A stretch of 64,000 bases of DNA from Naegleria gruberi (taxonomy: Eukaryota), in assembly GCA_000004985.1 (NCBI GenBank), contig GG738849.1; one strand, given 5' to 3'. Below the pieces are notes generated by a model. It was not told where the DNA came from and searched no databases. It saw only the letters and a program-made list of their open reading frames with translations. The translations under genes were made by a program, and so were the position numbers. Below, one piece after another: positions 10,378 through 39,867 of this stretch (position 1 is the first letter of the stretch; each line of letters starts with the position of its first letter).

Positions 10378-12877
10378 CTACAAGTAATATTGTTTCTTGT
10401 TGAGATTTTTGTGAGGACTTTTAGAAATGTTCGATTGACCATGTAAAAATGCTACCTTGTGAGCTAATATACAAGGTACAGGAACACTCGAAATTCCCAA
10501 ACGATTATAATACAAGTGACACAATTGGTACGATATATTCTGATAGAATACCTTATTAAATCCACTCCCATTTTCCAAAACCTTATACCTTGTTGGAGTT
10601 GCTGTTCCCTGAAACGAATCAACATGATGAGATTGAAGAAAGAATGACATTTCGTTTGGATCTGATGTCAGAATATCACCATCTAGAACTGTTCCTGGTT
10701 TCAAATTACCAAAATTGTTTCCATTTAGCCCAGCATATATTCTATTATTGATTCGTTTAAGTACAAGAATGAAATTGAGTGGAATAGAGTTGTATTCTTT
10801 GCAAACTTGTTGGATGGCTAATATCTCCTGATTGTAAATGTGATCTTCTTGCCCTGAACCTACACCATCTCTATAGAAAATAATATGTGTTGGAGAAGTT
10901 TTGTTCTCATTCATGAAATTCTCAATTGCATTCCTCATTAGATTTTTGATATTTTCAACCAACTCAACTCCTGGCTTCTGGACTTGGATTTGAGAATAGT
11001 ATGCGCATACCTTTGAATCGTAGGATGATACGAAACCAACGAGAGAGGATTTACTTCGATGGTAAACTTCACCTGAATGATTAACATCCATTCCGACAAT
11101 CATGGTATGTGGTTTCATTGGAATTGATGTCATCCAAGGAATTCCTCCAAGTTTAGCATTCATTTCAATTGTGATATTCTTCAAAATAGATGATTTTTTT
11201 TCAGAGATAGCAATGTTCCTCTCAGTAATGCATTGGCTAGGAATTCCCATATCTACAATGGTTTTTTCTTTCAAGGTATGGTATTCGGTACTTGTTTTGT
11301 TTTTAGTTATCATGAGAATGAATGAGATTGGGTAAGAATTTCTAATAGTATCAGTGAGATCTTTTTTTGAAACATGAGGAACATATTGTTGAAAGACATA
11401 GTTCATATTGGATGTTTCTAAATTCATTTGAGAACAAAACTGTTGCAACTTGTTGCAAAAGTCAACCAAATCTTTTGATTTTGTACCTTGATGAAGAACC
11501 AATACGCGTTCAAGAGATTTGCATTCGAACATGTTACTATTATTTTCAATTTTGAACATTCCTCTTTCTTTTTCAATTTTAACTTTTCCTCCAATTTTAA
11601 TGGAACAATCTTCAAGTGATTCCGTTTGCACTTGAATCATTTTTGGGACAATAGATATACCCTACTTATCCAGCTCTAATTTGAACTCTGAATGTTCCAA
11701 ACATTCGCGTTGATTGTTTAAAGTTTCTCTAATTCTGTCATTTGGTGGTTTTTTAGTGACAGAGGCAATTTTCTGCATTGTGGTAAAATTACTTCTCATA
11801 TCCTGACTTATTCCTGTCAATAGACACAACGAAGGAATATAGTATTCAACCTTTCCATTCCTCTTGTTAATATGTTTAAGTAAGGGTTGTTTCAAATCAA
11901 CGTCTTCACCATATTGTGTATTGTAATATTCTGCGAATGTAATTTCCTTTCCTTGAAAATTGAATGTTGACACAGGACTCATATCAAATTCAACACTTTC
12001 AATATAAATAGTTTTCTTTCTGTAAGTCAAGTAAACAATAGAATTTCCAAATTCTCTCTTGATTTTCGTTTGGGCAGAACGTTCTCCAAACTGTTCAATA
12101 ATCTTTTTCATTTGGCTTAAAACAGTATCTGTTCTCATAGTTTTATAAATTGGCTCAACTAGGAGAGCAAGGCCTTTAGAGGTGGTACAGGTTGAGCTTA
12201 GAGTTCCTCCCAATATTTGAAGCCCACAATCATGAATAGTTGTTTTGGTCTCTTCATTGTAAAAGTTTCTTCCAATTCTTGTTAGATTCAACTTGGCTTG
12301 AGCGTTCTTAAGGACAGAGTTGACGAATTGTACAAAGTCCTTTCCAGAATTTGAAACAGTAATGGTTGTTGCCAGCGTGATTGAAACAGTGTACACAATA
12401 TTTCCAATAGAACACGTCTTTTCTAAGTGTTTCTTTTGAGGTGGAAGAATTGAGTTGAGAGAGTATAAAATTGACCCACTCTGTAAGAAGTCAATTAGAA
12501 AGTCACTTAAAGCCTGCTTTACAATCCTATTAGCAAGGTATTTGTTTTCAATTTGCGGACTAATGTTAACATGGTACTGATAAATTGAAGTGTGCTTTCA
12601 ATTCAATTGGGAACATGTTGATTACATCCTTTCCCTTTCCCAAATTAAAATAATCAACAACTGGAATTTGGGACAAGGGTTGGCTAGGTGAATTTGAGGA
12701 GAATTGATTTGTTTTCTTATGATGTTGGTTGTGTGGCTTCTTGTCAGAGTTATAGGCTTTGTACTTGGTTCCTTGTGATAACATTTTTTCTTGTTGTGTT
12801 TTCTTCCATTTTGCAATTCCCAACCCAAAAATAACAATGTTGGGAAGTCTGGAAGATATGTTGAGTTGGGAAAGCAA
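10378..12877 (-). CDS. AGO: Argonaute/Piwi-family protein (N, PAZ, MID, PIWI), reading frame interrupted twice
   Basis: ORF 10378..11640 contains MID plus PIWI (LGGIPW, IVGMDVNH, IIFYRDGVGSGQ, PVPCILAHKVAF, i.e. an RDG/H catalytic signature). ORF 11662..12396 and its upstream open frame to ~12560 contain L1/PAZ (LCLLTGISQDMRSNF, VTKKPPNDRIRETL) and the N-domain motif SIYQYHVNISPQ. ORF 12566..12877 gives the extreme N-terminus (GKGKDVINMFPIELKAH). The pieces are co-linear in Argonaute order but separated by (i) a +1 frameshift at an A-run near 12590 and (ii) a single in-frame TAG at 11662-11664, with the frame otherwise continuous across it. The start is probably the ATG near 12784. Confidence 0.75.
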
Positions 12878-30877: not shown

Positions 30878-32824
30878 GTGCCGAAGAACATATCAAAATA
30901 TTGGAATCAATACCGTATTCAAATCATCTTAGCCACAATTTTATCATTACAAAGAAGCTCCATTGATGCAGAATTGTATGTGAAGGATCCATCATCAATG
31001 ATTTATGTATCAAAAGATGATGATTTGAAAAAACTTTCACCTCTGTCCATCCAATTAATTTTGGGAACCATAAGGCTTGTGAGTTGTTGGAATATATGAA
31101 GAATGTAAAAATGGATGCAATAATATTCCTAGTATTGATAACATTTTGCACAGAAAAAAACTACTCATGGAAGGAATTGATATGCATAAAAAGATCATGG
31201 AATATAAGATAGAATCCTTAAAGGTTGACAATGCACTGATGAACTTTTATACGAAATGTGAAATGCCAGATGAAGCATTAGAAATTTTTGACCACCTCAA
31301 AAGTGAAAAGAAACCAATTGATATTATAACATGGACTTGTACTATTCAAGCTTACATGTCCAAAAATCAAGTTTCAAAAGCTATGTCCTTACTCTCAGAA
31401 ATTCAATTATATCAAACCCCTGACCCAATATTGTTTTCAACAGTATTACATATTTGTGCTGAAAATAGGTTGATTGAAGAAGGACAGGAAATTCATCAAA
31501 GAATTAACAAATTGAAAAAGCAGAATATCATTTTAGACAATGCACTGATGAATTTTTATACGAAATGTGGAATGCCAGAAAAAGCATTAGAAATATTTGA
31601 AAAACTCAAAAGTGAAAAGAAGCCAATGGAGGTCATGATATGGAACTGTGCAATTCAAGCTCTTGGTGAACAAAAGAAGGCCATTGAGGCATTTTCTCTT
31701 TTCAAAGAAATGGAAAGTAATAGCATAATTCCAACTGAGATTACATTTAATATCTTGTTAAATATTTGTGCTGAAAATAAGTTGATTGAGGAAAGGACAG
31801 GAAATTCATCAAAGAATCAAAAAATTGAAAAAGCAGAATATCATTTTAGACAATGCATTGATGAATTTTTATACTAAATGTAAAATGCCAGATGAAGCAT
31901 TAGAAATATTTGAACAACTCAAAAATGAAAAGAAACCAATTGATATTATAACATGGACTTGTGCTATTCAAGCTCTTGTACAAAAGAAATGCATTGATGA
32001 GGCATTGGATTTACTTGAAACAAATGGCATCCAAGTCGACGAAGTGATTTATGTTGTACTTTTGACTGCATGTGCAAACGATGTGTCAATAGAAAAAGGT
32101 GAGCATGTTATCAAACTAATAGAATCGTCTGGAATGCTCACAGACCATATTATGTACGGAGCTGTTGTAAACTTTTATGCCAAAATTGGAAATATTCAAA
32201 AAGCTCTGTATTTTTTCAATGAATATGATGGCCCTCCTGAAAGTCTTTAATGATGTGGAAAGAGCTGAGAGAGCATTTAACATTTTATTAGAGCTCGATA
32301 AGGAGCAAGCAACTCATTATGTTCTAATGTCGCATGTGTACCTTCAAAGTGATCAACCAGAAAAAGCAAAAGAAATAAGGGAATTGATGAAAAAAAATGA
32401 GGTACAAAAGACACCTGGCATTACTACAATTGAAATTAATGGCAAAACTTATCATTTTTACTACAATGACGAAAGCCACCCCAAAAAGGAGGAAATATTT
32501 CAAGAATTGGACAAGTTATGCCAAGAAATGGAGCTCGCAGGCTATGTTCCAGACACGAGATGGGTTACTAAAACGGATGCCAATGATGAAGAAACAAAGA
32601 AACATTTACTTTCAAGGCATTCTGAAAAAATTGCATTATCATTTGCTTTCATTTCCCTTCCACCTGGATCACCAATAACAATACGAAATAATCTGAGAAT
32701 GTGTGGAGATTGTCACACAGCAACAAAGTTTATATCAAAAATCAGGAAGTGTGAAATTACGGTTAGAGATGCCAGTAGATATCATCACTTTAAGGATGGA
32801 AAGTGCAGCTGTGGAGACTTTTAA
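30878..32824 (+). CDS. PPR-E-DYW protein (plant-type DYW deaminase-domain PPR), frame disrupted by at least 3 single-nucleotide indels
   Basis: ORF 32177..32824 has an E-motif plus a complete DYW domain (HSEKIALSFAFI, NLRMCGDCHTATKFISKIRKCEITVRDASRYHHFKDGKCSCGDF). ORFs 31146..31877 and 31786..32250 hold PPR repeats (DNALMNFYTKCxMPxxALEIFxxLKxEKKP). They overlap in different frames. The shifts sit at A7 (near 31155), gaggaaagg (near 31790) and T6 (near 32208). An upstream ORF 30878..31099 and a third frame carry further repeat-like sequence. Confidence 0.7.
31215..31985 (+). repeat. Internal tandem nucleotide repeat (3 copies, period ~315-320 nt) inside the PPR-DYW gene
   Basis: gacaatgca[c/t]tgatgaa[c/t]ttttatac[g/t]aaatgt[g/a][a/g]aatgccaga... 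recurs at ~31215, ~31535 and ~31849. Copies 1 and 3 are nearly identical over >120 nt. Confidence 0.8.
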
Positions 32825-32858: not shown

Positions 32859-33824
32859 CTAATACATTTTCGGAACGTTTATTGTTGGATAAGCACCAGA
32901 GTTTGGATTTGGTACATAATTTGGATTAAAGTCATCTCTTCTCTTTCCAACTAATCCCAATTTCTTAATGGCACTATATTGTTCAGGAATTTCCATTAGG
33001 GCATGTAATGCAAAGGTGGCATCCACTGATTTTTTAGCCTCTCTGGCCTTCTTGGCAACTTCATCCCAATGGACAAATTGGAAATTATCAAACTTTCTCT
33101 GAGGTAACTCATCATCATAATTATGCATCAAATCAAAAGGTCCATCTCCTAAACCAACCATGACAATACTGATTGGATAATTGCTTGCCCTAACGATTGC
33201 TTCTTCAGTTTCCTTTTCATTGACAACCAAACCATCTGCCAAAATAATTAAAATATGATATTGACCTCTACCAGATTGCATGACAGTTTCAATTGCCTTT
33301 TCAATTACAGGTGCAAAGTTAGTTGGACCACTCAACTTGATGTGTGGCGTTATTCTTCTGTATTCATGTAAAACTTCTTCAAATCCTCTACATGGTCTGT
33401 ATTCACCATTAGGACAAAATGGGAAACAACCAAAATCACGACACTTATCATCTCCAAATCCTAAAACATCTATCAACTTGTCGTCATCAAACTTTTCCAA
33501 TGTTCTACCAATTATTGAGATGACTTTTTCATATGGATTTACAATATCACCAACCGGATCAATATAATGAAGACTTCTTCCTCCAAAGGTTTTTCTTCCT
33601 TGTTCTTCATTCGATTTTGTATAATCAATTCCGATGATCAAATTACATGATTCTAAACCAGTCTTTCTCAGGGCATCTTGCACCTCTTCAATGGAATTAT
33701 AATTATCACCAATAGCAAGTCCCAAGGCCGATTGTGAAGTAGTTTGTTGAGCATTGGCTTTTTTTGTTTTAGAATAAATAGCAATAATAGCCAGTATGAT
33801 CAGTATGATGGTGAATGGATCCAT
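32859..33824 (-). CDS. Copine-type vWA-domain protein with N-terminal membrane anchor (no C2 domains)
   Basis: 321 aa. It starts MDPFTIILIILAIIAIYS, which is hydrophobic. The copine A-domain signatures are NLIIGIDYTKSN, SLHYIDP, NPYEKVISIIG, DVLGFGD and ILIILADGLVVNEKETEEAIVRASNYPISIVMVGLGDGPFDLM. Confidence 0.7.
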   Translation of the reverse strand: MDPFTIILIILAIIAIYSKTKKANAQQTTSQSALGLAIGDNYNSIEEVQDALRKTGLESCNLIIGIDYTKSNEEQGRKTFGGRSLHYIDPVGDIVNPYEKVISIIGRTLEKFDDDKLIDVLGFGDDKCRDFGCFPFCPNGEYRPCRGFEEVLHEYRRITPHIKLSGPTNFAPVIEKAIETVMQSGRGQYHILIILADGLVVNEKETEEAIVRASNYPISIVMVGLGDGPFDLMHNYDDELPQRKFDNFQFVHWDEVAKKAREAKKSVDATFALHALMEIPEQYSAIKKLGLVGKRRDDFNPNYVPNPNSGAYPTINVPKMY

Positions 33825-34263
33825 TATGTGTGTGTTTTTGGTTAGTGTATTGTTGTCTTTTTATTTTTTCTTTTAAACTTGGAGGAACATGAACCATTAT
33901 TAATACATGATTTGATGAACATCAAACACGTGTTTCAAGACACGAAAATTTGTTTCTAAAAAAAACATCTTCATTCGATATCGGGAACTGTAGAGGTGAC
34001 TACAAAATGCCACAAGAATCTGGTTGAGTAAGGTATAGTAAGGGGTAAAAATACTAAACCTTGTTGATAAAGCTGCTAAATCTTTTAACTCTAAATAGTG
34101 AATGGTGACTTGAAGCTGCCTAGAAATTGAGTGAGATTAGCAAAGTTTAACAAGAAATTCTTCATTGTATTTTGCAATAAAGAATACATAATTGTTCAAC
34201 CGATCTTTTCAAGTTGTATTTTCTTTCCCGCCACAATTTGGTTCCAAAACTTCTACAAAAAAA

Positions 34264-34809
34264 ATGGCTGAATTACATCTTATTGGAGAAATTACAGGAG
34301 CAACAGGGTACAGGGAAGATAATCTGTTTTGCTCATTTCATGTTGAAAAGGGAAGTCACTGGACACATGTAAGCGGCTTGGAAAAAGGACAAACACAAGT
34401 AAATAAGAGACACGGAGAAGATATGGTCAATATATTTGCACATCCGATAGATATTCATTACTCAACACCAACTGTTGTAGGTTGGCCTAAAATAGTGATA
34501 CAAGTGTGGTACAATGATAATTATGGAAGAAATGATTTTGTGGCATATGGAGTTTTGAATATCCCTTCGCAGGGAGGTTACTTTGAATTGGAGTGTCCAA
34601 CATGGAGGCCAGTAGGAAATTTGAAGGATAGAATTGGTGACCTAGTTGTTGGTGGAAGAATGCAAGTAAAGGATTTATCAATTGTACATAACGGAGAAGA
34701 CAGAAGAAAGCTCACAACCATATCATGTGGAACTGTATATATCAAATTGAATGTATTATTAAGGAACTTTAAAAAGTATGGAGTTTCAACAACTCAGGTA
34801 CAACAATAA
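34264..34809 (+). CDS. B9D2: B9 domain-containing protein 2 (ciliary transition-zone MKS module)
   Basis: MAELHLIGEITGATGY...NLFCSF...GQTQV...FAHPIDIHYST...VGWPKIVIQVWYNDNYGRNDFVAYGVLNIPSQGGYFELECPTWRP. ATG at 34264, inside the larger ORF-track ORF. Confidence 0.75.
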   Translation: MAELHLIGEITGATGYREDNLFCSFHVEKGSHWTHVSGLEKGQTQVNKRHGEDMVNIFAHPIDIHYSTPTVVGWPKIVIQVWYNDNYGRNDFVAYGVLNIPSQGGYFELECPTWRPVGNLKDRIGDLVVGGRMQVKDLSIVHNGEDRRKLTTISCGTVYIKLNVLLRNFKKYGVSTTQVQQ

Positions 34810-34862: not shown

Positions 34863-36078
34863 TTAGAGAAAAGTTGGATTGGCAGTTGTAATGGATGGTT
34901 CCTCTGTTGATGTAGTTCCTTCCAATTGAGAATAGGTTCCGACATTACCCTCCCTTCTCTTCCCATATTCATCTAATACATTGTGAGCTACCAATACAGC
35001 ATCTCTGTCATAGGTTTCATAATCGAGTGGTCTTCTTCTCACAGTGGCTGAAGTAAATCTCGACTTGACATTAGAGACACCTGAAGTACCCTCATGTTTT
35101 GTGAGAGCTCCTGTATTTTGTTCGGCGATACTCTTTCTGAATGCAATTTTCACTTCTGGATCCAATTCTTCGATACGATGAATTTTACCATCTCTCATGT
35201 AGACAACTCTGTCAGCTGCATTTTTCAAGTTAGGGTCGTGAGTAACCATGACCATTGTAATTCCATCTTCCTGATTGAGTTTGATGAGTAGATCCATAAC
35301 ATTAAGGGTATTTTTTGTATCCAAGTCACCACTATAAATCCATATCAGGTTTTCAGGTTTAGAATATTAGTCAATTCAATGTTAAAGTTAAATTAGAAAA
35401 TGTTAGAAAATTCTAAATAAATGAAATACATACGTTGGTTCATCTAAAAGTAAAATTTCTGGGTGATTAGAAATGGCTCTGGCAATTGTGACACGCTGTT
35501 GTTCACCTCCTGACAATTGATTAGGAGAGTGATCGAAACGATGTCCCATTCCAACTTTTTCTAACAACTTTTTAGCTCTTTCTCTTCTTGTTGATTTACT
35601 CACATTTCCTTGTAAAATCATTGGCATTTCCACATTTTCCAAAGCAGACATTGTTGATAATAAGTTAAAAGTTTGAAATACAAATCCCATTCTAGCCAAT
35701 CTAATATTGGCCAATGTTTCATCCTTTGTATTTGAAGTAACACGTTCTCCACAAATTGTCAAGTGACCCTTTGTTGGTTTATCAATAGTTCCAATAATAT
35801 TCAACATGGAGGTTTTACCACCTAAATGTGTGATGAAGATGTGTTGTTGATAATATTATTAATATTATTTATCACAATTATTATTATCATCATCATATCA
35901 TTAAATACACTACCTCCTGAAGTTCCGTAAATAACAAGAAATTCTCCTCTTTTCACTTTTAAATTAACTCCTCTCAAGGCAGGAACACCTTCAATACCTA
36001 ACAAGTAGGTTTTTTGAATATTATCCAATTCTATTATATAATCAGTTGTATCAACTTCTCCGACTTGTTTGAAGAGAC
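34863..36078 (-). CDS. Bacterial-type ABC transporter ATP-binding protein (LolD/MacB/FtsE-like NBD, ABCH-like), at least 3 exons, with C-terminal extension
   Basis: Exon A is 35915..~36078 (IIELDNIQKTYLLGIEGVPALRGVNLKVKRGEFLVIYGTSGG, Walker A split by the intron). Intron 35823..35914 is 92 nt (GTAGTG...TTTAG, phase 1). Exon B is 35434..35822 (GKTSMLNIIG, Q-loop, LSGGEQQRVTIARA, ILLLDEPT). Intron 35342..35433 is 92 nt (GTATGT...TTATAG, phase 2). Exon C is 34863..35341 (GDLDTKNTLNVMDLLIKL...ITMVMVTHD, then a ~130-aa non-ABC tail). No ATG lies upstream in frame, so a further 5' exon is possible. No TMD is attached. Confidence 0.75.
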
Positions 36079-36756: not shown

Positions 36757-36863
36757 TACAATTCAATAATTTAAACTTGATGTAAGAAAACAATACAATA
36801 GAAACAACAACGGAAGAAAAAGTGAAAGTGTCCAAATCTCCAACAAGACAACTTAAAAAAATT

Positions 36864-38048
36864 ATGATGCACAATTCAAAGACCCAACCATTCTCCATGA
36901 TGGGTCACACACCACTATCATCGGAGAGGAGGAAATATCGAAGAATGGAACAAATTATAAAACATCTTATACCTTTTGCAACTATTAAAAGTAGTAGTAG
37001 TATTGAAGAAAATAATTATTGTACAACAAGTGTAAATAATAATAGAAAATGTGAAAATAATAATCAAATGATGGAAATATTACAATTTTTAATAAGACAC
37101 ATTCTTGTTACTAAAAGGAATAATAAGGATTCTATCAATCAATTAAATATAATCCTACAAAAATATATTCAACAAACGAATGGGGATTTTAAAAAGTATT
37201 TACCAATCGGAATTATTGCAGGACTGATATGTGCAAACAAATATAATCAAAATAATAGTACTATATCGAATAGATTTAATATTGTAAAAAACATTTTTAG
37301 TAACAGTGCTGGAATTTTAAAAGATAACAATATTGCAGTCACAATTCATCATTTGAGTATGATTGAAATTTTAATTGCCATTTCAATTATTGTTACATTT
37401 TCTGGACTTACAGGAGCTGTGCTTGCACAAGTTTACGAAGAAAGTCGTGTGAGTAATGCCTTGTTAGATTTGGCAAAATTACAGGAAGGACTAGTTCTTT
37501 ATTTCACAAGACATGGTAAATATCCACTTTCACTTGAGGATTTATTAGAAGGAGGCGAGTTGAATAAGGTTCCAAAAGATCCTTGGGGAACAGATTACCT
37601 CTATGTCCCTCACCTCGATTGGAATCGTCTTAATAGAATTTTACTCACCACAACAACAAGCAATAGTGGAAATAATTCTACTTCACAACAACAATTAACA
37701 TATTTCAATGAAGTATTGAAGAGAATGGAAACTGTTCTGATAACATTACCTGGAGGTGTCACACCCATGTCATTACTAGCAATTGCCAATGAACAACCTT
37801 TCTGTATTTGTGTGGGAACAAAGATACCTCGTTTCCCAAGCAAGATTGATGTTGATGTATCGAGAGAACGTATCAGATATGTGGCCAATTTGATGAAAAT
37901 GTCTATGGAGAGAAGTAGTGTTGCTGGAAGTGTTCAATCCAATAATCAACAAGGTGTCACCTCAATAATGAATCAAATTACTGAATTGAATGCCAGAATT
38001 AAGAATATTTTAAATGTTACCAGACAAGCATCAGGTGGTGGAGAATAA
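36864..38048 (+). CDS. GspG: Type II secretion system major pseudopilin GspG homolog (mitochondrial T2SS-derived system) with long N- and C-terminal extensions
   Basis: The pseudopilin core is SMIEILIAISIIVTFSGLTGAVLAQVYEESRVSNALLDLAKLQEGLVLYFTRHGKYPLSLEDLLEGGELNKVPKDPWGTDYLYVP. This is an N-terminal hydrophobic helix with Glu at about +5, followed by the GspG-specific KxPKDPWGxxY motif. A ~180-aa basic N-terminal extension precedes it. The ORF-track ORF starts at a GTG at 36822. The first ATG is at 36864. Confidence 0.8.
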   Translation: MMHNSKTQPFSMMGHTPLSSERRKYRRMEQIIKHLIPFATIKSSSSIEENNYCTTSVNNNRKCENNNQMMEILQFLIRHILVTKRNNKDSINQLNIILQKYIQQTNGDFKKYLPIGIIAGLICANKYNQNNSTISNRFNIVKNIFSNSAGILKDNNIAVTIHHLSMIEILIAISIIVTFSGLTGAVLAQVYEESRVSNALLDLAKLQEGLVLYFTRHGKYPLSLEDLLEGGELNKVPKDPWGTDYLYVPHLDWNRLNRILLTTTTSNSGNNSTSQQQLTYFNEVLKRMETVLITLPGGVTPMSLLAIANEQPFCICVGTKIPRFPSKIDVDVSRERIRYVANLMKMSMERSSVAGSVQSNNQQGVTSIMNQITELNARIKNILNVTRQASGGGE

Positions 38049-38196: not shown

Positions 38197-39867
38197 ATGT
38201 CTCGCAAAAAGGAACCTGTTGTCGAAGGACTTTCTGCTGCCGAAGCAAAAGTAAGAGCTTCCAGCGAAATTGTAAAGGAATTATTAAAAGCCTATGATAG
38301 TAATGAAACAGTTGTGATGGCAAAAGTCAGAGCACGTATTTCACGTAAATATAAATTAAAAACAGGACCAAAATTAGTAGAAATTATTGCAGCCATTCCG
38401 GAGGAACATAAATCAAAATTATTACCACTCTTGAAGGCCAAACCAATCCGTACAGCCAGTGGTATTGCTGTTGTTGCTGTAATGTGTAAACCTCACAGAT
38501 GTCCTCATATTGCCATGACAGGAAATGTTTGTTTATATTGTCCTGGTGGTCCTGACTCTGATTTTGAATACTCTACACAATCTTATACAGGTTATGAACC
38601 TACTAGTATGAGAGCTATTAGAGCTCGTTATAACCCATATCTTCAAACTAGAAATCGTATTGATCAATTGAAGAGACTTGGTCACGATTGTGATAAAGTT
38701 GAATTCATCATCATGGGTGGTACATTTATGAGTTTGGAAAAGGAATATCGTGATGAATTTATTAGAAATTTACATGATGCTCTCTCCGGTCACACCAGTT
38801 CAAGTGTCGAAGAAGCAATCAGATATAGTGAACAAAGCAAGCAAAAGTGTATTGGTATTACTATTGAAACAAGACCTGATTATTGTTTAAAGCCACACAT
38901 TTCTAATTTATTGGAATATGGTTGTACCAGACTTGAAATTGGTGTTCAATCTATTTATGAAGATATTGCTCGTGACACAAATCGTGGTCACACTGTTGCT
39001 TCTGTTAAACGTTCTTTCACATTGGCAAAGGATCAAGGTTACAAAATTGTTGCTCATATGATGCCTGACTTGCCAAACTCTGACATGGAAAGAGATATTC
39101 TTGGATTTATTGAATATTTTGAAAATCCTGCATTTAGAACTGATGGTCTTAAACTTTATCCAACATTGGTTATTAGAGGTACAGGATTGTATGAACTGTG
39201 GAAGACAGGACAATACAAGAATTATTCACCTGATTCATTGGTTGACTTGGTTGCTAAAATCATGTCACTTGTTCCTCCATGGACAAGAGTTTACCGTATT
39301 CAACGTGATATTCCAATGCCTCTTGTTACAAGTGGTGTTGAAAAGGGTAACTTGAGAGAATTGGCTTTGGCTAGAATGAAAGATTTGGGTTTGAAATGTC
39401 GTGATGTCAGAACTAGAGAAGTTGGTATTCAATCTATTCACACTAAGATTATTCCTGATGAAGTTGAACTCATTAGAAGGGATTATTGTGCTCAAGATGG
39501 TTGGGAAACTTTCCTTGCTTATGAAGATGCTGCTCAAGATATTTTAATTGGTTTATTACGTTTGAGAAAATGTACTCAAACTGATACTACTTTCCGTAAG
39601 GAATTGAAGAATGACCAAATTGCCCAAGCAAGTATTGTAAGAGAATTACACGTTTATGGTTCTGTTGTTCCTGTTCGTGCCAGAGATCCAACTAAATTCC
39701 AACACAAGGGTTATGGTACATTACTCATGGAAGAAGCTGAAAGAATTGCCAGAGAAGAACATGGCAGTCAAAAACTCCTAGTTATCAGTGGTGTTGGTAC
39801 TAGACATTATTATAGAAAATTAGGCTATGAATTGGATGGTCCATATATGAGTAAGATGCTTGTGTAA
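38197..39867 (+). CDS. ELP3: Elongator complex protein 3 (radical-SAM / GNAT tRNA modification enzyme)
   Basis: 556 aa, single exon, near-identical to metazoan ELP3 over long stretches ([89 protein letters not shown]). Confidence 0.95.

Follow-up and report, generated by a model that had tools for sequence, protein, structure and literature searches.

Locus and identity of the gene

The stretch of DNA considered here (64,000 nucleotides of contig GG738849.1 of Naegleria gruberi, assembly GCA_000004985.1, hereafter the window) harbors on its plus strand an uninterrupted open reading frame (ORF), 36822..38048. A previous inspection of the letters alone (the sequence-only reading) had attributed it to GspG, the pseudopilin of type II secretion systems (T2SS), and had assigned it to the T2SS-derived system of mitochondria (miT2SS), a secretion machine of bacterial type that a few protists have retained in their mitochondria and that is inferred to be ancestral to eukaryotes. 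This attribution was borne out by the database comparison, which revealed that the 394-aa product is identical (100% identity, 100% coverage) to the N. gruberi RefSeq protein XP_002681672.1 (also EFC48928.1, NAEGRDRAFT_63068 and UniRef D2V2P2). This protein is named "Naegleria gruberi (GspG1)" in Supplementary Data 1 of Horváthová et al. (2021, Nat Commun 12:2947; PMC8134430), where it is also marked 'M', i.e., present in the mitochondrial proteome. Hence, the locus corresponds to the nuclear NgGspG1 gene, the product of which can be regarded with confidence, although not with full certainty, as the precursor of the major miT2SS pseudopilin.

The locus is already known, in that NgGspG1 is a published and experimentally characterised protein, the same residue for residue and with the same architecture, orthologues and GspG2 paralogue. 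Homology searches, phylogenetic analyses and targeting predictions have been published for it, and likewise a genome-wide search for GspD/E/F and Gcp proteins and its localisation by antibody and tagging (PMC8134430). Since the same protein was used in the 2021 experiments, the finding at the locus adds nothing by itself, except for the fact that the gene proved to be recognisable by a model from the raw sequence. What is added here over the published work is a structural model of the C-terminal novel domain (ND), a census of this domain (about 25 clusters in 1.84 billion), a short N-terminal nonapeptide resembling the peroxisomal targeting signal type 2 (PTS2) and an explicit list of the differences between mitochondrial and bacterial GspG (Gly(-1)/N_methyl, the calcium-site region and the alpha-beta loop).

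Two details of the sequence-only reading had to be amended. The ORF is real; its start, however, is the ATG at 36864 (the first of the frame) and not the in-frame GTG at 36822, which lies 14 codons upstream, gives a product of 408 aa and was proposed because the ORF listing followed the bacterial code with its mechanical start rule. Moreover, "the" pseudopilin component is indeed a GspG, but one of two paralogues: GspG2, sharing 26% identity with NgGspG1, is located elsewhere in the genome. The strings that had been quoted are both present, i.e., HH|LSMIEILIAISIIVTF, in which the residues after the bar begin at aa 164 (37353), and KVPKDPWGTDY. The general architecture that had been described (a long N-terminal extension, a pilin helix, a DPWG loop and a C-terminal extension) was reproduced by the searches and matches the published one, i.e., mitochondrial targeting sequence (MTS), polar anchor, transmembrane domain (TMD) with Glu at +5, pseudopilin domain and ND (PMC8134430).

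As for the start codon, the 90% cluster of NgGspG1 contains a second, ENA-derived member (P0011) of 406 aa, which differs from it by a few residues and small indels. This protein begins at the upstream GTG position (MKVSKSPTRQLKK...) and therefore illustrates how the GTG start originates; it probably comes from another N. gruberi strain or from an assembly passed through a prokaryotic gene caller.

The coordinates of the gene, of its parts and of the neighbouring genes are reported in Table 1. No gsp operon (gspC-O) surrounds the gene, whose neighbours are eukaryotic genes. Since these neighbours are eukaryotic and the GC content is about 33% throughout the window, the DNA is nuclear N. gruberi DNA rather than a bacterial contaminant. 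The idea that the ORF represents a contamination, a recent and inert horizontal transfer or a pseudogene draws on the fact that, outside a few protist lineages, its top sequence matches are bacterial GspG. Nevertheless, it can be considered as ruled out on the basis of the eukaryotic genes lying on both sides within a nuclear scaffold of considerable length (the contigs recorded for the protein reach 850 kb), the composition of the gene, which is that of its surroundings, the eukaryote-only extensions, which are conserved across genera, and the detection of the protein itself by mass spectrometry and antibody.

The window was also searched by tblastn with 14 other N. gruberi Gsp/Gcp proteins (GspD, E, F, G2, DL, DN1-3, EL, EN2A, EN2B, Gcp8, Gcp9 and Gcp16), none of which is encoded in these 64 kb, the sole match being that of the GspG2 paralogue with the GspG1 gene itself. 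Accordingly, GspG1 is not clustered here with the genes of its partners. The accession of NgGspE (XP_002681638) is numerically near XP_002681672, which does not mean physical proximity in the window. Immediately upstream of GspG1, and on the other strand, the ABC-transporter ATPase domain is split into two ORFs, an arrangement consistent with a short intron or a frame break.

Table 1. Features of the GspG1 gene and of its neighbours in the window
Feature	Coordinates	Strand	Basis
Complete single-exon coding sequence of NgGspG1, 394 aa + stop	36864..38048	+	ORF and identity to XP_002681672.1
N-terminal extension, aa 1-163, mitochondrial targeting region	36864..37352	+	sequence and reporter of PMC8134430
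Nonapeptide RMEQIIKHL, aa 27-35, followed by I-P; within RRMEQIIKHLIP	36942..36968	+	homologue alignment
Pseudopilin (GspG) domain alignable with bacterial GspG, aa 164-249: alpha1, shortened alpha-beta loop, DPWG..Y.Y and first beta strand	37353..37610	+	
Pilin-type hydrophobic N-terminal helix (LSMIEILIAISIIVTFSGLTGAVLAQ, aa 164-189)	37353..37430	+	sequence, conservation, model
GspG signature loop KVPKDPWGTDY, aa 235-245	37566..37598	+	alignment
Novel domain (ND), aa 248-394, with five helices and, around invariant Gly318 (FCICVGTKIP), a very small hairpin	37605..38045	+	
PPR protein	31146..31877	+	
Copine	32859..33824	-	
B9-C2 ciliary basal-body protein	34192..34809	+	
ABC-transporter ATPase domain (PF00005, E 3.6e-21), two ORFs (35403..35807 and 35822..36028)	35403..36028	-	
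Elp3 (radical SAM + GNAT)	38197..39867	+	

Pseudopilin part and novel domain

The product of the ORF matches the Pfam family T2SSG (PF08334) with a score of 24.5 bits and E 2.9e-5, the gathering cut-off being 21. A profile constructed on the mature regions of eight eukaryotic GspG proteins retrieved from PDB the pseudopilin PulG (5wda, E 9.5e-7) and several EpsG/GspG crystal structures, and its hhalign comparison with eleven bacterial GspG sequences gave a probability of 99% (E 5.4e-18) over 93 aligned columns, which begin at the polar anchor and end with the D-P-W-G-x-x-Y-x-Y signature. The pseudopilin match of this ORF is well beyond chance.

The hydrophobic pilin helix with a Glu at +5, predicted by the sequence-only reading, was confirmed: Leu164 corresponds to +1, as also marked in PMC8134430, and Glu168 to +5 (37365..37367), in the context L164-S-M-I-E168. 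This Glu is invariant in all the homologues, as are the residues from M166 to I175 and G184. The GspG-specific motif KVPKDPWGTDY is likewise present and carries the signature loop P-x-D-P-W-G-x-x-Y. In the hhalign alignment, the PKDPWG region is paired with the invariant DPWG..Y of bacterial GspG. D239, P240, W241 and Y245 are nearly invariant in the eukaryotic homologues, and the D-P-W-G residues and the Tyr are invariant in the bacterial ones.

The AlphaFold2 model of the mature part (aa 164-394, from an alignment of 14 sequences) reached a mean predicted local distance difference test (pLDDT) of 79.4 and a predicted template-modelling score (pTM) of 0.69, with one helix covering mature residues 3-54 and a pilin-head fold resembling the solved GspG structures. 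The TMD helix, the DPWG loop and the ND are retained in the orthologues from N. lovaniensis, Willaertia magna and Malawimonas, and likewise in EukProt, JGI and Logan sequences.

The features shared with the bacterial proteins GspG/PulG/EpsG/XcpT (PF08334, TIGR01710; PDB 5wda, 4lw9 and 3fu1) include the alpha1 helix with Glu at +5, the alpha-beta loop and the DPWG-x-x-Y signature, to which the reported self-association and, for an orthologue of NgGspG1, the binding to GspF must be added. Type IV pilins and geopilin (PilA, PilE and Geobacter PilA-N) were also retrieved through the helix, with E values similar to those of some GspG entries (9egp, 3.5e-6; PilA/PilE, 1e-2 to 1e-3); however, this match is limited to the helix (profile positions 3-65), and the likeness in the DPWG loop and in the head is specific to GspG.

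With respect to bacterial GspG, the leader of which measures 6-25 aa, NgGspG1 exhibits an N-terminal extension of 163 aa; it is nuclear-encoded, lies outside an operon and possesses an added helical ND of 147 aa, and its alpha-beta loop is about 15 residues shorter. It lacks Gly(-1), a match to the N_methyl family and an alignable C-terminal beta-sheet or calcium site. The prepilin-peptidase site of the bacterial proteins (a short basic leader, Gly(-1) and PF07963) was not found in NgGspG1, whose leader is 163 aa long, whereas PF07963 and an invariant G-F are present in 120/120 of the bacterial GspG listed. Taken together, NgGspG1 works like and descends from GspG, belonging to a divergent eukaryotic subfamily rather than being an equivalog.

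The part that follows DPWGTDYLY is 147 aa long, in agreement with the C-terminal extension of about 150 aa indicated by the sequence-only reading (PMC8134430 counts an ND of about 100 aa), and includes, at about aa 262-277, a low-complexity linker of Thr/Ser/Asn/Gln. The conservation of this domain extends over the Naegleria, Willaertia, Neovahlkampfia-like, malawimonad and further sequences, in which P249, W253, P312, G318 and P322 are invariant. When modelled alone with AlphaFold2, it gave a pLDDT of 80.3 and a pTM of 0.74, with five helices and a minimal hairpin, and the same elements were observed in the full model; as modelled with confidence, the ND is an autonomous, independently folding five-helix unit, for which no specific match emerged at the level of the fold.

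The ND had been supposed to have no obvious counterpart in bacterial GspG, and this also proved correct: hhalign assigned to the pair a probability of 0.03%, the alignment of the full family ends at YLYVP, and the domain was found only in mitochondrial-type GspG. It has been reported that neither HHpred nor Phyre2 detects a homologue (PMC8134430). Similarly, the ND profile retrieved nothing below E 0.028 among PDB sequences, where the best match was a designed helical protein, and nothing below E 0.025 in Pfam, where a weak match to FliT had E 0.11. The profile was further searched with hmmsearch against 1.84 billion (1.84e9) protein cluster representatives (E <= 0.001), yielding 26 proteins, i.e., 25 mitochondrial-type GspG and one repetitive protein taken as spurious. 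Wherever the sequence reaches far enough, the 25 proteins harbor, before the ND, the pilin helix and the DPW signature, and a long N-terminal extension is present as well in those of full length; no bacterial-type (short-leader) protein was found among the matches. Since no relative is detectable in these clusters outside mitochondrial GspG, the ND is probably an invention of eukaryotes rather than a lost bacterial domain. The possibility that the ND might be a disguised remnant of the GspG beta-sheet, with 'FCICVGTK'/'FVFSLGRK' corresponding to the bacterial 'DIFSLGPDG', was also considered; only a two-residue hairpin and the invariant Gly favour such a remnant of beta2/beta3; the sequence comparison does not lend it support, and it is not claimed here.

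Many of the approximately 25 ND clusters (P0018-P0036) come from metagenome or transcriptome assemblies (e.g., P0020, P0025, P0026, P0028 and P0032) and show the mitochondrial-GspG architecture. Given the origin of these matches, protists bearing the miT2SS may be more widespread in environmental data than the list of species published in 2021 would indicate.

Localization and possible role in the miT2SS

The N-terminal extension comprises 163 aa from the ATG (177 from the GTG), so that the basic extension of about 180 aa described by the sequence-only reading was roughly right; it is Asn-rich, has a pI of 9.93 and 21 K+R residues vs. 9 D+E, and finds no counterpart in bacterial GspG. Experiments carried out by others on NgGspG1 demonstrated its mitochondrial location and the targeting capacity of the extension. 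Residues 1-160 deliver mNeonGreen to the mitochondria of Trypanosoma brucei, where the full-length protein gives a weak signal, and a GFP fusion reaches yeast mitochondria (PMC8134430). A rat antibody raised against NgGspG1 revealed its co-fractionation with AOX and TatC and a mitochondrial immunofluorescence, and all the peptides identified by mass spectrometry come from the mature part, downstream of the pilin processing site (PMC8134430). The same authors showed that the soluble domain, albeit monomeric, self-associates with a Kd of 216 nM, and that the Gefionella orthologue GoGspG1 oligomerises and binds GspF when assayed by bacterial two-hybrid (BACTH) (PMC8134430). As regards the possible partners, N. 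gruberi GspD, E, F, DL, DN1-3, EL, EN2A/B and several Gcp proteins have been listed with their accessions (PMC8134430).

The scheme that follows is the most likely and the best supported one, and corresponds to the published account. The 394-aa precursor would be made in the cytosol and imported into mitochondria through its basic extension, and the pilin-type hydrophobic helix would anchor GspG1 in the inner membrane. Its cleavage, immediately before Leu164, would follow and would be due to a protease different from the prepilin peptidase GspO, which these eukaryotes do not have; the candidates published for the processing of GspG are the mitochondrial processing peptidase (MPP) and the gluzincin-like metallopeptidase Gcp16. 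The mature subunit, with Glu at +5, would be extracted from the membrane and polymerised by the GspE ATPase on the GspF platform, so as to form a short pseudopilus in the intermembrane space, which would push cargo through the pore of the truncated GspD secretin in the outer membrane. The ND, as a eukaryote-specific addition to the pilin head, would be exposed on the surface or at the tip of the filament, where it would probably mediate a contact peculiar to eukaryotes, involving the cargo, the GspDN proteins or a substitute for the missing GspC/minor pilins. In this scheme, we infer where and by which protease the precursor is cleaved, that the filament forms in vivo, that export takes place and what role the ND plays.

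A number of observations weigh against the assignment of NgGspG1 to a working pseudopilus. Firstly, of the two profiles with which the sequence-only reading had proposed to check the gene, PF08334 scored above its cut-off, whereas the equivalog model TIGR01710 remained far below it (27.4 bits vs. 88.85, over model positions 4-104 of 134). Secondly, residue -1 is His and not Gly, PF07963 (N_methyl) was not reported for NgGspG1 even at E <= 10 (PF08334 being the only precomputed Pfam domain), and nothing past YLYVP aligns with the bacterial beta-sheet/calcium-site region (..D-x-F-S-x-G-x-D-G...D-D-I-G-N-W). Thirdly, the Foldseek comparison of the whole mature two-domain model with PDB gave nothing below E 0.2, and the bulky ND could interfere with a PulG-like helical packing; the published pilus model left out this domain (PMC8134430). 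Furthermore, the targeting predictors fail on NgGspG1 (TargetP2 'other' 0.996, MitoFates 0.007; PMC8134430). Lastly, the miT2SS is devoid of the minor pseudopilins GspH-K, of GspC, of GspL/M and of the peptidase GspO, and neither secretion, nor a filament, nor a cargo has been demonstrated in any eukaryote (PMC8134430, PMC10128026). The 2023 mBio review repeats the published picture of GspG and discusses the missing GspO (PMC10128026).

Some of these observations might suggest that the parts of the T2SS now serve a purpose different from secretion, and that NgGspG1 is a pilin-derived structural or membrane-tethering protein, whose subunits, decorated by the ND, would for instance build a static link between the inner and the outer membrane or hold the Gcp proteins as a scaffold. 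The absence of the minor pilins, of GspC/L/M and of GspO, the fact that the cargo is not known, the size of the eukaryote-specific ND (as large as the pilin head) and the undetectable calcium-site region would be in keeping with this idea. On the other hand, the GspE ATPase with an intact Walker A, the GspF platform, the pore-forming secretin GspD and the Glu at +5 have all been retained together, the last one in every GspG, which points to a dynamic assembly, and GoGspG1 binds GspF and oligomerises as bacterial major pseudopilins do. A structural role outside secretion appears unlikely. As to the interpretation given by the sequence-only reading, all its elements are correct and had already been published.

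A PTS2-like nonapeptide shared by miT2SS components

The N-terminal extension is poorly conserved among the orthologues, apart from a single short element near its start, the nonapeptide RMEQIIKHL. The same element occurs at the N-termini of GspE, GspEL, GspEN2A, GspEN2B and GspF in Supplementary Data 1 of PMC8134430, often followed by x-Pro. It resembles the PTS2 read by the receptor Pex7: both lie near the N-terminus and begin with Arg, positions 2, 5 and 9 being occupied by aliphatic residues and position 8 by His/Gln.

In order to assess its distribution, a family pattern, R[LIVMAT]xx[LIVT][LIVMAFGT]x[HQ][LIVMF], which was written after seeing the data, was searched in the first 100 aa of the miT2SS proteins. 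It was found in 55/58 GspE/EL/EN2A/EN2B/F/G proteins from heteroloboseans, jakobids, malawimonads and hemimastigotes, vs. 0/39 GspD/DL/DN1-3 proteins and 0.9% of shuffled N-termini; in the 55 proteins it is located no further than about 90 aa from the N-terminus. The published PTS2 patterns (Petriv 2004, Kunze 2020), taken a priori from PMC9512073, matched 16-18/58 proteins vs. 0/39, with 0.1-0.7% expected from the shuffles (Petriv, 18/58 vs. 0/39, 0.7% expected; Kunze, 18/58 vs. 0/39, 0.1% expected). In a set overlapping with that of the supplement, the motif was present in 21/23 mitochondrial GspG proteins having more than 50 aa upstream of the transmembrane helix; the Petriv pattern was found in 0/121 bacterial GspG. 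Among the other 35 ORFs of the window that start with ATG and are at least 150 aa long, none matches the published patterns and one matches the loose one. Since the motif occurs in almost all the proteins of the first group and in none of the outer-membrane/intermembrane-space components, it marks the components expected at the matrix/inner-membrane side.

Gcp1-3, which co-occur only with the miT2SS, are WD40 proteins closest to Pex7, and this is the only context in which PTS2 is mentioned by Horváthová et al. (PMC8134430). No mention of a nonapeptide in Gsp proteins was found in that paper and its supplements, in the review (PMC10128026) or in a limited literature search; therefore, the sharing of a PTS2-like nonapeptide among miT2SS components may be new.

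It is possible, albeit rather less probable than not, that the nonapeptide, in the form R-[LIVM]-x-x-[LIV]-[LIVMA]-x-[HQ]-[LIVMF], is a putative PTS2-type signal read by the Pex7-like Gcp1-3, providing a dedicated targeting or sorting route for GspE, EL, EN2A/B, F, G and some Gcp16. This would refine the targeting step of the scheme proposed above, without any conflict with the role of NgGspG1 as a pseudopilin. Besides the counts obtained in the four eukaryotic lineages with both the family and the a priori patterns, and the similar figures from the overlapping set, the bacterial GspG and the ORFs of the window, it is favoured by the closeness of Gcp1-3 to Pex7, by the silence of the two miT2SS papers and of the literature searched, and by the fact that the families bearing the motif are not homologous to each other in the N-terminal region, the surrounding extension being unconserved. 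Moreover, Gcp16, the HEXXH metallopeptidase put forward as a candidate for GspG processing, begins with perfect copies in Malawimonas, Gefionella and Spironema (RLSALLRQL, RLRTLLRHL and RLAAVLRHL). Many members of the family fit the Petriv and Kunze patterns exactly, as does the copy of the N. fowleri and N. lovaniensis orthologues (RIYKIANHL), which fits all the published patterns.

However, the copy of NgGspG1 fits the family pattern but falls outside both strict ones, because of Met at position 2 and, for the Petriv pattern, also of Ile at position 6, and the broad pattern was designed after the data had been seen. Unlike PTS2 cargo, the miT2SS proteins are mitochondrial by experiment: NgGspG1, GspE and GspEN2A were found in mitochondria and not in peroxisomes, and the presequence works in yeast and in T. 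brucei, both of which are devoid of Gcp1-3 (PMC8134430). A reasonable alternative is that the element represents a conserved MTS core of the type bound by Tom20. The Tom20-binding cores of ordinary presequences consist of an Arg followed by hydrophobic residues with a phi-x-x-phi-phi spacing, and the nonapeptide, which has the same spacing, could be such a core.

Somewhat more speculative than the signal itself is the wider picture in which the nonapeptide, as a putative ligand of Gcp1-3, would belong to an ancient receptor-based import/sorting pathway related to peroxisomal PTS2 import and serving a mitochondrial machine. If true, the reading of the nonapeptide by Gcp1-3 would explain the co-occurrence of these Pex7 paralogues with the miT2SS, and the nonapeptide would represent a sequence tag for finding further clients, possibly including the cargo. 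In any case, it offers a cheap and testable handle on the targeting of the parts of the machine and on Gcp1-3. A twin-arginine (Tat) signal was also considered for this N-terminal motif and discarded on inspection, since it contains one conserved Arg only and no hydrophobic h-region after it.

The only other ORF of the window matching the loose pattern (11662..12138, minus strand) carries RTDTVLSQM at aa 2; none of the PTS2 patterns from the literature fits this peptide, and the match is probably due to chance. As for the other families, the scan covered some of the Gcp proteins and revealed no motif in Gcp8; the N-termini of Gcp9 show the second half of it only (phi-phi-F-P-[RK]-phi). The two Naegleria Gcp16 proteins are without the N-terminal nonapeptide and exhibit predicted scores for the peroxisomal targeting signal type 1 (PTS1) instead, while those of Neovahlkampfia and Pharyngomonas harbor an internal copy at about residues 78-95. 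Lastly, GspDN2 contains an internal conserved stretch, M-[KR]-[KR]-L-x-x-F-L-x-H-F-D-[RK]-P-P, that resembles the nonapeptide, and most of the GspDN2 proteins also possess a predicted C-terminal PTS1.

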